Below, one piece after another: positions 34,148 through 37,796 of a DNA stretch of 64,000 nt. The notes below the pieces were generated by a model. That model made no database searches, was not told where the DNA came from, and saw nothing but the letters and a program-made list of their open reading frames with translations. Each line of letters begins with the position of its first letter. The stretch's first letter is position 1. The DNA is from Escherichia coli (GTDB taxonomy: Bacteria; Pseudomonadota; Gammaproteobacteria; Enterobacterales; Enterobacteriaceae): the NCBI RefSeq assembly GCF_041886205.1, contig NZ_CP169029.1; one strand, written 5' to 3'. Position numbers and translations under genes: made by a program.

Positions 34148-35428
34148 CTATAGCTGTTTATTCCAGAGATGCTTGAAAATATCTAATGTTGAGACAACAT
34201 TGGCAGGCGACATTCGGTTTAATGAGGGTAGAAAGGGATGAGCCTCCAGGAAGTTGATAAAACGAGTCGCGCTTGCCAACGTCGAATTCCGCATTTCATT
34301 TGCTTTCTTGTTTCCTGTAAGGTTACAAACAGCCATTGAATAATCACGGGCGGAAAATGCACGCCAGACATTATTTCTCACGCCACCACTCAAAAATAAC
34401 CGCGGCGGCGTATCATAATGAGTCGTTTTCTCGCCGCGCTCTTTCACAAAGGAAATATGGCACCGGCCTTGATGAATATGCTGCAAATTAGCCATCAGAC
34501 AACCGCCTAATATAAAGCACTCGTTATCAAGGTAGTGTTGAATATTTATAGAATATCCTTCAGTCAGTACTCTAACCAGTTCAAAATGGCGATACGCCGG
34601 AAGAACCGGTTTCACCAGCATCCCCGGATCGTTTTGATGTAATATCGCCCGACCATAATCAATATCAAATAAGGTATCACGCCGCATAGTAAGTAACTCC
34701 TTGCGTTGTACGTGATGCGCCAGTGTACCTGGAGACAAACGCTCTTCATAACTTGATGCATACTGATAATGCGACTCTACCGCTGATGGAGAATAATTTG
34801 TTGAAATAGCGACAACTCTACCGCTTTGTTCTTCTGTGGTAACAAGACTATAAAGATAGTTATTACTACCGTTAAACTTTACGCGAAAAGCACGGGTAGC
34901 TAGAGAAATATCAGAAGCAGAAGAGTACTGGCGACTTTCTTTATAGTTTACTTCCCGGGCTAGTTTTATCAATTCACGGTTAAGCCCTGTGCTATTAAGA
35001 AGTAATAATTTACGGATATCAGCAAGTGAAGCACCTTGCTCAATCATCAATGCTAACTGTGTTCTTCGCGGCGTTGTATTTACATGATCCAGAGTGATAA
35101 ATGTTCTGGAACAATGATGACAATACATTCTCCTCTGCCCTTGAGCTGAATAACCATACTTTTTCAGAGATGTGCTTCCGCAAGCTGAACATTGTGGAAC
35201 CAACCCTCGCCATGAATGATTAACACGATTACGATAAATATTAAGAGATCGTTCAGATATCACAGGAAAAAAGTAACCGCATTCCCGACATAAAATATTT
35301 TTGCCTTGTGCAATATAATCCTGGCTATTCAACAATCCCAAGTTTTTGCATCCTGGTGTTTTGCAACAATCAACATTTACGTTGGTAAACATATTCACTC
35401 CCTGCGAATATCCGGATATTATCGTCAT
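34148..35428 (-). CDS. Cys-rich hypothetical protein with tandem transposase-like zinc ribbons and a putative HTH; possible regulator or accessory factor of the adjacent sulfatase
   Basis: 426 aa, no signal peptide; CxxC pairs at CRECG / CSACGS / CHHCSRTF, resembling IS1 InsA and IS1595-type transposase zinc ribbons, followed by a helix-turn-helix-like segment (QLALMIEQGASLADIRKLL); no radical-SAM CxxxCxxC motif. Confidence 0.6.
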   Translation of the reverse strand: MTIISGYSQGVNMFTNVNVDCCKTPGCKNLGLLNSQDYIAQGKNILCRECGYFFPVISERSLNIYRNRVNHSWRGLVPQCSACGSTSLKKYGYSAQGQRRMYCHHCSRTFITLDHVNTTPRRTQLALMIEQGASLADIRKLLLLNSTGLNRELIKLAREVNYKESRQYSSASDISLATRAFRVKFNGSNNYLYSLVTTEEQSGRVVAISTNYSPSAVESHYQYASSYEERLSPGTLAHHVQRKELLTMRRDTLFDIDYGRAILHQNDPGMLVKPVLPAYRHFELVRVLTEGYSINIQHYLDNECFILGGCLMANLQHIHQGRCHISFVKERGEKTTHYDTPPRLFLSGGVRNNVWRAFSARDYSMAVCNLTGNKKANEMRNSTLASATRFINFLEAHPFLPSLNRMSPANVVSTLDIFKHLWNKQL

Positions 35429-35521
35429 ACGTCAAAGAAAAGAACCTGATTCAATGTGTAACATTGAATCAGGCGGGCATAGCCCTGAAAGGCATACATT
35501 ACATTTATTATGGTTATCAGA

Positions 35522-37015
35522 TTAGCCCCAGGTTACCGCTTCCGGTTTATCACCTCTGGCTTTCATTAATGAATCATTATCAATATCGGCTTTATATTTT
35601 AAGAACTTACCATACATTTGTTTTTCAATGTCTGGATTTTTACCTATCTGATTAATAGTCTCAAAACGATCGGTTTTGAGGTTATATAGGTACTTTGGCT
35701 TATTGTTACGATCGATGATCATTTTCCAGTCACCATCACGTATCGCCCATTCGTCGGTTGGATCATCCTGGAATGGCATGTCAATTCCGAAGATTAATGG
35801 CTTTTCACGTTTTAGCGCTTTGTTCTCAAGGACAGGAACCAACGATTCGCCATCAAAAGTGCGGTCCGTCGGTAATTTGAAGTTCATCATTTTCGCCAGC
35901 GTAGGCATCCAGTCCAGACCATAAACTGGCGTATCTGAAACCATTCCCTTTGGAAGATGTTTACCGTATTTAATAATTGCCGGAACACGGATGCCGCCTT
36001 CCCAAAGATTATCCTTGCGACCACGTAATCCATCAGTTTCACCTGCCAAATTCAGTTCATAAACTTTGCGTGCTTCACGCGTTACTGGGCCGTTGTCACT
36101 GGTAAAAATTATGATGGTGTTATCTTCTTCACCCATCGCTTTAATTTTATCCAGCACTTTTCCAACCTGAGCATCCAGATAACTGATGTTGGCATAATAT
36201 TCTCCTGTACCACGCCAGGGTTTATCCGCCCAGTCGCCATAAAATAAATCAGGATGCTGCTTCTGATATTCGCTCATATATTGTGAGTACATGTCGAGGT
36301 ATTTTTTGGGCGAAGCCAGGGGACTATGTACTTCGGTAAAAGCGACATAAAGGAAGAAAGGCTTACTGTCCTTTTTGTTATCCAACCAGTTAACAACTTC
36401 CGAACTGACATACTCACCACTCATTTTATCGGAACGTGGCGTTGGTTGCCCGTTACGCAACCAACCCGTTGGATAGACCATGCCAAAACGGGGACGCTCC
36501 TTCGCATTATCCAGAGTAGCGTCGGTAACAAAACCCGCCGTATTAACCAGTGAGTAATCAAAGCCCATATCTTTTGCCTGCGGCTGATCGGTGCGATCGC
36601 CGCCTGCATTCAGATGCAGCTTACCCATCATGGCCGTGTCGTACCCTTGCGCTTTGAGTAGATTAGCAATCGTGAGTTCATTACGCCCTAATGCCACATC
36701 TTTTCCCGTTGGGATCCATGAGCGTATGCCAGTACGAAATGGCATCCGCCCTGTTAATAGTCCCGCCCGTGAAGGAGAACTTAAGGGGGCAGGTGCATAG
36801 TAGTCGGTAAATTTGACGCCTTCCCGGGCAAGCCTGTCTATATTGGGCGTTTTAACGATCTGATGTCCATATGTTGCCAAATCACCATACCCTAAATCAT
36901 CCGCCATAATGATGACTAAATTGGGTTGTTTAGTCTCGGCGGCTACGGCTGGATTAAAAGCATTCCCTGTGCAAACTGCAAGGCCGATCAAACTGGCCAT
37001 TAATGTTTTCTGCAT
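35522..37015 (-). CDS. Periplasmic sulfatase (arylsulfatase family, Ser-type active site)
   Basis: Sulfatase signature S-S-P-S-R-AGLLTGR (the Ser variant of the C/S-x-P-x-R motif), metal-binding NLVIIMADDLGYGDL, signal peptide MQKTLMASLIGLAVCTGNAFNPAVAAE; start chosen at MQKTL to avoid overlap with the upstream gene. Confidence 0.88.
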   Translation of the reverse strand: MQKTLMASLIGLAVCTGNAFNPAVAAETKQPNLVIIMADDLGYGDLATYGHQIVKTPNIDRLAREGVKFTDYYAPAPLSSPSRAGLLTGRMPFRTGIRSWIPTGKDVALGRNELTIANLLKAQGYDTAMMGKLHLNAGGDRTDQPQAKDMGFDYSLVNTAGFVTDATLDNAKERPRFGMVYPTGWLRNGQPTPRSDKMSGEYVSSEVVNWLDNKKDSKPFFLYVAFTEVHSPLASPKKYLDMYSQYMSEYQKQHPDLFYGDWADKPWRGTGEYYANISYLDAQVGKVLDKIKAMGEEDNTIIIFTSDNGPVTREARKVYELNLAGETDGLRGRKDNLWEGGIRVPAIIKYGKHLPKGMVSDTPVYGLDWMPTLAKMMNFKLPTDRTFDGESLVPVLENKALKREKPLIFGIDMPFQDDPTDEWAIRDGDWKMIIDRNNKPKYLYNLKTDRFETINQIGKNPDIEKQMYGKFLKYKADIDNDSLMKARGDKPEAVTWG

Positions 37016-37034
37016 AATTATTCCTTTATGAAAA

Positions 37035-37796
37035 TTAGAAATCATAACCAAGCATATAAATCATTTGATCGCCAAAACCATCGTAGCCTAACTTATTATC
37101 GAAATAACGCCACGTCACACTGGCTTTCCAGCGAGGACAGAACTTCCAGGCAACTGTTAAACCGCCATTTAGCCCATTCCGACCAAATTGTTGTTCCGCA
37201 TAGGCATCATTTCTGTCCAGTTCTATTTCATTCCAGTTAGATAAAACAAATTTTTCGTCAAATAACGTAAAAGGTAATACTGCTGTCCAACCAACAACAT
37301 AACCATTCCAGCCATTTGTTTGACCATATTTGGCTGAGACATAGTCTCCAGATTGATTATGTAATCCTATATACGGTTTAAAAAATCCCCACGAACCATT
37401 CCAGCCGAGGTAGCCCAAGCCATAAAACATATCAAGATCGTCACCCCATGAGTTATCCCATTGACCATAGATCTTGCCAAAGAAAGTCATATCGGAGTCA
37501 AAAAGTCTGACATGTGTCATAGCAGAAACGGTATGATTACGCCCCGCTACGGCATGGTTAAGCACATTGCTTTCATAAAATGAGTAAAACTCGGCTTCTT
37601 TAAAATTCACACCAAAGTCCGCAGTCACTTTCCATACTTCACCACGGTGAGTGTTAACGAAGCCACTATTCCAGTCAGCATAACCTGCATTTATTGAGCC
37701 AAAGGAACCTTTATATTCTAATGAAGAATATGCAGGAAGATGATAGATAATCGTTGTCAGGGCACACGCAATAAGAAGCCGTCTTTTGGCAGACAT
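37035..37796 (-). CDS. Small outer-membrane beta-barrel channel (KdgM/NanC/OmpL-like or Tsx-like)
   Basis: 253 aa, signal peptide, rich in Gly/Tyr/Trp/Asn with alternating hydrophobic residues, C-terminal ...YMLGYDF ending in Phe (OMP sorting signal); family assignment is tentative. Confidence 0.65.
   Translation of the reverse strand: MSAKRRLLIACALTTIIYHLPAYSSLEYKGSFGSINAGYADWNSGFVNTHRGEVWKVTADFGVNFKEAEFYSFYESNVLNHAVAGRNHTVSAMTHVRLFDSDMTFFGKIYGQWDNSWGDDLDMFYGLGYLGWNGSWGFFKPYIGLHNQSGDYVSAKYGQTNGWNGYVVGWTAVLPFTLFDEKFVLSNWNEIELDRNDAYAEQQFGRNGLNGGLTVAWKFCPRWKASVTWRYFDNKLGYDGFGDQMIYMLGYDF

Follow-up and report, generated by a model that had tools for sequence, protein, structure and literature searches.

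A maturase-less Ser-type sulfatase module between nhaA and hokC in Escherichia coli as the predicted remainder of a larger enterobacterial operon

The DNA analysed here is a stretch of 64,000 nucleotides from Escherichia coli (contig NZ_CP169029.1; hereafter the window), which carries between hokC and nhaA three co-oriented open reading frames (ORFs) on the minus strand, encoding a Tsx-like outer-membrane channel, a periplasmic sulfatase and a Cys-rich cytoplasmic protein (Table 1). To judge by the corresponding loci of related genera, this module is Escherichia's reduced form of an operon common to many Enterobacteriaceae. In an ancestor of Escherichia the gene for an anaerobic sulfatase-maturating enzyme (anSME) was cleanly deleted, the formylglycine-precursor Cys of the sulfatase was replaced by Ser through one nucleotide change (TGT to AGT), and the rest of the module was kept by purifying selection. 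With moderate confidence we favour the reading as a whole, according to which Ser79 of the sulfatase from this reduced operon would be matured in trans by AslB or YdeM, and the Cys-rich protein would act as a regulator.

In Salmonella, Klebsiella, Citrobacter, Kosakonia, Phytobacter, Scandinavium and others, the module corresponds to a four- or five-gene operon with the order Tsx-like channel, sulfatase, radical-SAM/SPASM protein (~390 amino acids), Cys-rich protein and, often, arylsulfate sulfotransferase. The order that includes the radical-SAM gene was found in Salmonella, Klebsiella quasipneumoniae, Scandinavium, a Citrobacter-like contig and a relative with a 35%-identical Cys-rich protein. 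Because these radical-SAM proteins contain the motif CNLDCKYC and are 42–48% identical to AslB and YdeM of E. coli, they are assigned as anSMEs on sequence grounds. A scan of one genome per species added 20 loci, giving 27 in total, in which the genes were mapped by tblastn. The anSME gene is present in 18 of these loci and absent from nine, namely six of Escherichia (two E. coli alleles, two E. albertii, E. whittamii and Escherichia sp. MOD1) and those of K. oxytoca, K. spallanzanii and Phytobacter massiliensis. Wherever upstream DNA was available, the Cys-rich gene stands directly downstream of the sulfatase gene or, if present, of the maturase gene. The filler DNA in the K. oxytoca, K. spallanzanii and P. 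massiliensis loci measures 174, 335 and 236 bp, respectively; since these lengths differ, the three losses outside Escherichia are independent of the Escherichia event. Searches with five cognate anSME proteins (tblastn) detected no maturase remnant in any of the Escherichia, K. oxytoca, K. spallanzanii or P. massiliensis loci, and no radical-SAM gene or remnant in the whole window. The E. coli deletion was clean. The last 18 nt before the start of the Cys-rich gene (TATTCGCAGGGAGTGAAT) match the spacer between the maturase and Cys-rich genes of Salmonella, and the post-sulfatase terminator was kept, as was the region with the ribosome-binding site for the Cys-rich gene.

These comparisons bear on an earlier note on the window, which had placed the three ORFs correctly, on the minus strand between nhaA and hokC, and had rightly reported that the module encodes no maturase. 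Its low-confidence suggestion of sulfatase genes in the dnaJ-nhaA interval of Salmonella was borne out, and the co-occurrence of the three genes across genomes, which it had wished to see examined, is found in the 27 loci. The description of the module as a self-contained unit has to be given up, as the module is the reduced form of an operon in which an anSME gene occupies the sulfatase/Cys-rich junction elsewhere. In Salmonella and Citrobacter the locus is larger, with arylsulfate sulfotransferase genes on both flanks, and the Tsx-like gene (only ~55% identical) points the other way and has a gene for a periplasmic 5'-nucleotidase-like protein as its partner. Citrobacter amalonaticus has a second, divergent copy several kb upstream of dnaJ, not between dnaJ and nhaA; its sulfatase match covers ~57% of the protein, which may reflect a pseudogene or a frameshift.

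The sulfatase matches PF00884 (2.1e-58, residues 31–378) and is ~96% identical to PDB 3ED4 (1109 bits over residues 6–497). Its segment S79-SPSRAGLLTG fits the signature (C/S)-x-P-x-R followed by LTG and aligns with the formylglycine position of human steryl sulfatase; a Ser-type sulfatase with the motif SSPSR and a signal peptide had indeed been described from the window before. The orthologue set comprised the sulfatases of 26 loci, six from Escherichia and 20 from other genera. The loss of conserved catalytic residues, which would have spoken against a functional enzyme, was not seen: D39, D40, R83, K132, H134, H230, D307, N308 and K334 are invariant in all 26 orthologues, with catalytic roles set by motif, not by structural superposition. 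Position 79 is Cys in all 20 orthologues outside Escherichia (C-S-P-S-R; TGT or TGC) and Ser in all six from Escherichia (S-S-P-S-R; AGT), a single T-to-A change in the codon. Escherichia shows a fixed difference in only one of the 249 columns that do not vary among the 20 proteins of other genera, namely position 79. On this comparison, Ser79 and the loss of the maturase are both derived and, in combination, Escherichia-specific.

Ratios of nonsynonymous to synonymous substitutions (dN/dS; Nei-Gojobori) were calculated among the window allele, the B2-type allele and E. albertii. They amount to 0.024–0.031 for the sulfatase, 0.03–0.05 for the Tsx-like channel and 0.08–0.12 for the Cys-rich gene, comparable to the 0.015–0.028 of nhaA. 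The three module genes are under strong purifying selection. The maturase-less, Ser-type state is common to both E. coli alleles, E. albertii, E. whittamii and another Escherichia species, and is older than the split between E. coli and E. albertii (dS ~0.5–1.0). Between the two alleles of the module in E. coli, dS amounts to 0.56–0.91, compared with 0.08 for dnaJ and 0.30 for nhaA. This divergence is as deep as that between E. coli and E. albertii and suggests that the alleles are ancient or that one was imported from a different Escherichia lineage. It is in line with the divergence of nhaAR that separates B2 strains from non-B2 ones, described in the passages of PMC4182557 on that region. 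At the amino-acid level, the Escherichia branches of the sulfatase and the Cys-rich protein are longer; no conclusion is drawn from this, as comparisons between genera are saturated in dS and the other genera may have exchanged the genes horizontally.

The third gene of the module lies in an ORF (34148–35428) that the earlier note had read as a protein of 426 amino acids. The ORF is real and its start is better supported further in: all homologues start with MF, RefSeq uses the ATG at 35392 (MFTN...), and a GGGAG ribosome-binding site precedes it, so that the protein almost certainly has 414 residues. It contains two four-Cys zinc ribbons (C10/C15/C35/C38 and C68/C71/C91/C94), a helix-turn-helix at about residues 108–153 and an RNase-H-like transposase-fold domain at about 160–414. 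The Pfam search returned no domain above threshold and leaves the C-terminal ~250 residues covered by no family; in Pfam and PHROGs only weak zinc-ribbon or transposase N-terminal matches were seen. The IS1/IS1595 zinc-binding domain model NF050000 is matched with 30.6 bits (cut-off 28), the IS1 transposase model NF033558 with 28.8 bits against a cut-off of 100 and over model positions 1–88 only, which is no full-length match, and the InsA ribbon PF03811 is found in four of 23 family members at E ≤0.001. An AlphaFold2 model (predicted template-modelling score 0.74, mean predicted local distance difference test (pLDDT) 66) shows the two ribbons, a helical helix-turn-helix region and a beta-beta-beta-alpha-beta-alpha-beta core. 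Across the 23 diverse family members the eight ribbon Cys residues and Y26, G80, R88, Y211, R238, H269 and W343 are invariant, and they share no conserved acidic Asp-Asp-Glu (DDE) triad. The gene shows no mobile behaviour, being single-copy and syntenic in the 27 loci with dN/dS ~0.1, although no dedicated search for inverted repeats was made. From its architecture and modelled fold, the Cys-rich protein appears to be an exapted, catalytically degenerate IS1-like transposase. That it might be a decayed transposase unrelated to the sulfatase had been considered before; the transposase origin holds (zinc ribbon, RNase-H/DDE-like fold), whereas decay was rejected on dN/dS and strict synteny, and the gene is not unrelated to the module either. 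Its possible role as a maturase was likewise rejected: it has 13 Cys but no CxxxCxxC, as previously noticed for the gene at the maturase position, matches neither PF04055 nor PF13186 in the profile search, and coexists with a true anSME in relatives.

Close homologues of the Cys-rich protein occur only in Enterobacteriaceae (35–100% identity), where they are called 'cytoplasmic protein'. A profile search found more distant full-length relatives, and structure matches in the AlphaFold database lie in Vibrio, Proteus and Serratia. One distant relative (P0063) adjoins a radical-SAM/SPASM gene, another (P0072) lies beside a NupC transporter and a nucleoside phosphorylase, and a third (P0097) directly follows a 5'-nucleotidase. 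A perfect CRP-type site stands upstream of each of the distant members (~20% identity) beside nucleoside genes. The wider family thereby suggests a tie to nucleoside scavenging.

Most likely the Cys-rich protein is a DNA-binding regulator of the module. InsA of IS1 is itself a DNA-binding repressor, and the targets of the Cys-rich protein would be the conserved blocks upstream of the channel gene, beside a putative class II CRP-type promoter. Two such blocks, A and B, emerged from an alignment of 16 promoter regions of at least nine genera (Table 1). In Salmonella, where the channel gene is divergent from the sulfatase gene, block B is present in both promoters. The neighbouring CRP-like site is a perfect TGTGA-N6-TCACA in Buttiauxella, Franconibacter and Scandinavium. 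In the window it lies 28 nt upstream of a TATACT -10 hexamer (37882–37887), and its centre is ~41 bp upstream of the transcription start inferred from that hexamer, which would be class II geometry.

A different function of the Cys-rich protein has a small but real chance of being correct: it could be a cytoplasmic accessory of sulfatase biogenesis, which, for example, keeps the unfolded precursor available to the maturase ahead of Sec export or delivers metal. Such a role would fit its place directly behind the sulfatase or maturase gene in every locus examined, the spacers of 21–27 bp after the maturase gene, which suggest translational coupling, and the radical-SAM/SPASM gene that P0063 also abuts. 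In addition, C292, C298, C311 and H312 are also invariant within the sulfatase-linked subfamily, and another metal site could be built from them. However, InsA-type ribbon, helix-turn-helix and RNase-H fold make up the architecture of a DNA-binding transposase, the gene has been kept under purifying selection in four lineages that have no cognate maturase, and the other distant relatives have genes for NupC, nucleoside phosphorylase or 5'-nucleotidase as neighbours but no sulfatase gene close by. The regulatory role is the one we prefer.

Ser-type sulfatases need an AtsB-type radical-SAM enzyme, and anSMEs accept both Cys and Ser substrates. Activation of the window sulfatase in trans by AslB or YdeM is most likely, as predicted from sequence. 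The gene aslB is present in 5,424 and ydeM in 5,334 of 5,426 E. coli genomes, and the sulfatases encoded next to them are Ser-type by motif (AslA, SSPTR; YdeN, SGPSR). In the mechanism that we propose, a small sulfate ester would cross the outer membrane via the Tsx-like channel, Ser79 of the precursor would be oxidised to formylglycine in the cytoplasm by AslB or YdeM, and the sulfatase would then be exported by Sec and desulfate its substrate in the periplasm. The cognate maturase would have become redundant and, since only anSMEs, which are sensitive to oxygen, mature the Ser-type, the enzyme would be active solely under anaerobic conditions such as those of the gut. Every maturase-paired E. 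coli sulfatase examined (AslA and YdeN of K-12) has Ser at the formylglycine position, as has the window sulfatase. AslB and YdeM are described as putative anSMEs, and a third system is suspected in E. coli (PMC8379841). Cys-type sulfatases have further maturation routes in E. coli, the suspected third system among them, whereas the activation of Ser-type sulfatases in this organism and the roles of AslB and YdeM are unsettled (PMC8379841).

Alternatively, no formylglycine is formed and Ser79 itself serves as nucleophile as in alkaline phosphatase and related enzymes, making the protein a weak sulfatase or a phospho- or phosphono-esterase. We regard this as unlikely. The module has no cognate maturase, the sole change at invariant positions is the nucleophile, and a protein under such strong purifying selection must have some function. 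The deposited sequence of 3ED4 also has Ser at the formylglycine position, and PMC9063841 groups this structure with active-site mutants, the bound sulfate not touching the catalytic metal ion; choline sulfatase without the modification still turns over substrate (PMC6189696). On the other side, the set of residues for formylglycine chemistry and maturase recognition is kept (SxPxR, LTG, R83, K132, H134, H230 and K334), and the two anSMEs beside two other Ser-type E. coli sulfatases offer an available maturation route. Furthermore, arylsulfatase variants with Ser in place of formylglycine are trapped as dead-end sulfo-enzymes. A combined alternative, in which a formylglycine-free Ser79 enzyme was fixed when the maturase was lost and the Cys-rich protein founded an undescribed exapted IS1-like regulator family for sulfatase and nucleoside-scavenging operons, seems to us slightly more doubtful again.

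That the module is a decaying remnant, with a sulfatase left inactive by the loss of the maturase and ORFs that persist for lack of time, is very unlikely and largely refuted by dN/dS: ~77% of complete E. coli genomes are without the whole segment, the nhaAR region is called highly volatile in the passages of PMC4182557 devoted to it and the GC content of the segment is low, but all three ORFs are intact with dN/dS of 0.02–0.12, no invariant sulfatase position besides 79 has changed, and the maturase-less Ser-type state is old, extending across Escherichia species and across E. coli alleles as far apart as given above. Purifying selection, together with a maturase loss that predates the split of E. 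coli and E. albertii, therefore argues that the module is no decaying remnant.

Returning to maturation of Ser79 in trans and regulation by the Cys-rich protein, several points weigh against this preferred view. To lose the maturase while switching to a strictly maturase-dependent residue looks paradoxical, and K. oxytoca, K. spallanzanii and P. massiliensis kept Cys despite their loss of the maturase. Klebsiella AtsA produced in aerobic E. coli needs co-expressed AtsB. The activity of AslB and YdeM and their acceptance of the window sulfatase are sequence-based predictions, and the role as regulator is deduced from fold, synteny and conserved motifs. The AlphaFold2 model is moderately confident, given its mean pLDDT, and poor at residues 291–351. 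At two distant loci of the Cys-rich family, CRP-like sites were found but no block B. In E. coli, expression of the Cys-rich gene is left unexplained by the presence of a terminator immediately upstream of it.

Between the sulfatase and Cys-rich genes, the element GTATGCCnnTTAGGGCnnTGCCC is conserved in Escherichia, Salmonella, Citrobacter, Klebsiella, Phytobacter and Kosakonia, despite saturated synonymous sites. Rfam (E-value mode) over 33800–38700 found hok/sok RNA only and nothing for this element. In the adjoining terminator (listed as 35434–35474 in Table 1, more narrowly 35444–35474), seven of 16 pairs have compensatory changes (RNAalifold, 15 sequences). The promoter and terminator scans overall gave matches at chance level, the sigma-70-like match upstream of the Cys-rich gene included, and of the scanned terminators only this covariation-supported one was used. 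The layout of the conserved element and the covarying terminator resembles a small RNA derived from a 3' untranslated region or an attenuator by which the proportion of sulfatase to maturase is set.

Table 1 Features of the module and its surroundings in the window
Feature	Coordinates	Strand	Details and basis
Accessory segment	34134–38184	-	4,051 bp; 125 bp in K-12 instead; blastn of the K-12 spacer
Flanking gene nhaA	32730–33896
Flanking genes mokC/hokC	38318–38560
Cys-rich cytoplasmic protein	34148–35392	-	414 amino acids; ORF 34148–35428
Deletion scar at the maturase site of other genera	35393–35433	-	Intergenic comparison
Intrinsic terminator inside the operon	35434–35474	-	14-bp stem and T-run; terminator scan
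Conserved non-coding element GTATGCCnnTTAGGGCnnTGCCC	35475–35497	-	~23 nt, just 3' of the sulfatase stop codon
Periplasmic S1 sulfatase	35522–37015	-	497 amino acids; Sec signal peptide (...AVA/AE); PF00884
Codon 79 (AGT, Ser), formylglycine-precursor position	36779–36781	-	Codon table of 26 orthologues
Tsx/OmpK-family outer-membrane channel	37035–37796	-	253 amino acids; Pfam PF03502
CRP-like site TGCGA-N6-TCACG	37908–37923	-	Position-conserved in 16 loci; CRP inferred from consensus
Conserved block B (AAAAnnCACAnTTTTnTGACAC-like), candidate operator for the module's own regulator	37954–37979	-	16 loci
Conserved block A (AAATCAATGAGTGATA), part of candidate operator	37983–37998	-	16-region alignment

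The channel protein matches Channel_Tsx (PF03502, 5.8e-14) over residues 105–253, so that only its C-terminal 150 residues are covered. An N-terminal signal-like sequence and the C-terminal ...GYDF were read from the sequence. Against NCBIfam NF008574 it scores 123 bits, under the cut-off of 282, and is not equivalent to that orthologue group; a PDB sequence search with the protein gave no match. With regard to the substrate, the nearest characterised sulfatases (among them steryl sulfatase, arylsulfatase A, GalNAc-6-sulfatases and carrageenan sulfatases) match at E ~1e-50 or weaker. Host mucin sugars or sulfated glycans, the examples put forward in the earlier note, found no support in this analysis. 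Due to the linked arylsulfate sulfotransferases, the Tsx-type channel and the 5'-nucleotidase-like gene of Salmonella and Citrobacter, there is a weak hint of small aryl- or nucleoside-type sulfate esters as substrates.

The region of the window is the dnaK-dnaJ-(IS186)-mokC/hokC ... nhaA-nhaR stretch of E. coli in reversed orientation. Alignment of the K-12 nhaA-mokC spacer to the window (blastn) gave 125 bp there against 4,051 bp here, in agreement with the statement in the earlier note that K-12 has no such genes and only a short spacer between nhaA and hokC. The GC content is 41% in the segment and 49% in the window. In a megablast search, with carriers defined by coverage of at least 80% of the segment, the full segment was found in 1,271 of 5,426 complete E. 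coli genomes. The carriers fall into two allele classes, roughly 200 with ~97–100% identity to the window and ~1,060 with ~86%; the majority type includes the B2-phylogroup reference strains. RefSeq names the products 'outer membrane protein OmpK', 'sulfatase (family protein)' and 'hypothetical protein' or 'IS1/IS1595 family N-terminal zinc-binding domain-containing protein'. Most genera with the operon have it at the same dnaJ-nhaA position; therefore, the empty K-12-like site is most simply explained by a later deletion. In the 125-bp K-12-specific spacer, no remnants of the module were found beyond chance 8–11-mers.

The surroundings of the module vary as well. An IS186/IS421-type transposase ORF (372 amino acids; 38632–39750, plus strand) lies between hokC and dnaJ on the strand opposite dnaJ; the K-12 copy at the same site is on the dnaJ strand, and strain 6EVA, the closest full-length match to the module, has no insertion sequence between hokC and dnaJ. 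Adjoining nhaR, a fimbrial usher (816 amino acids) and a putative adhesin of 319 amino acids are encoded at 28305–31727 (plus strand). The usher is intact here and annotated as frameshifted in 6EVA; the K-12 counterpart near nhaR consists of a fimbrial pseudogene fragment and IS1 only, which makes this another volatile nhaAR module.

The locus represents a natural experiment with three states: a Cys-type sulfatase with maturase (Salmonella, K. quasipneumoniae, Kosakonia), a Cys-type sulfatase without maturase (K. oxytoca, P. massiliensis) and a Ser-type sulfatase without maturase (all Escherichia examined). About a quarter of E. coli genomes carry the module, which may play a part in adaptation to the gut or the host. 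As a bacterial transposase that has been taken over for a host function, the Cys-rich protein is a clear candidate, and its core domain belongs to no Pfam family. Literature searches for Salmonella STM0035-0038 with sulfatase, or for arylsulfatase with Tsx and radical SAM, returned nothing relevant. Within the literature searched, three points appear to be undescribed: that the dedicated maturase was lost repeatedly, that in Escherichia this loss is coupled to a unique Cys-to-Ser switch under continuing purifying selection, and that the fourth gene of the operon is a domesticated transposase.

The module's existence and its patchy distribution are already known. A 'putative cerebroside sulfatase' fragment is one of the five volatile modules around nhaAR in Lescat et al. 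2014 (PMC4182557), whose passages on these modules place the same DNA segment, present or absent, between hokC and nhaAR in E. coli. Neither the absence of a maturase nor the change from Cys to Ser is mentioned in those passages, nor are the Cys-rich protein and the operon of other genera. PDB 3ED4, an unpublished structural-genomics entry titled 'putative arylsulfatase from Escherichia coli', represents virtually the same protein in its B2-type allele, including SSPSR; in the literature on this entry we found the structure only, and no published function, substrate or maturation data.

Compared with Tsx/OmpK proteins, the module channel is alike in Pfam match, size, signal peptide and C-terminal aromatic residue; however, its Pfam match is confined to the C-terminal part and no solved structure is detectable by sequence. 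The candidate CRP-type promoter of the module would resemble the one known from the regulation of tsx. With InsA/InsAB' of IS1 and the IS1595 transposases, the Cys-rich protein shares the CxxC...CxxC ribbon followed by helix-turn-helix and RNase-H-like core, but in contrast to the IS1 transposases it has an extra N-terminal ribbon, is without the conserved DDE triad, and is single-copy and syntenic. The pairs aslA-aslB and ydeN-ydeM occur in the same organism with the same Ser-type motif, and AslB and YdeM have the identity to the lost maturase given above. AslA and YdeN, however, are only 26–30% identical to the module sulfatase and have a maturase next door but no channel or Cys-rich partner. 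The atsBA system of K. pneumoniae also comprises a periplasmic S1 sulfatase with Ser at the formylglycine position, of the type that needs an anSME/AtsB enzyme. The gene order of atsBA is the reverse of the sulfatase-then-maturase order in the relatives of the module. In these relatives an anSME with CNLDCKYC adjoins the sulfatase, whereas the Escherichia module encodes none and has a Tsx-like channel and a transposase-fold protein as part of the unit. Moreover, AtsA is Ser-type, whereas the module orthologues outside Escherichia are Cys-type.

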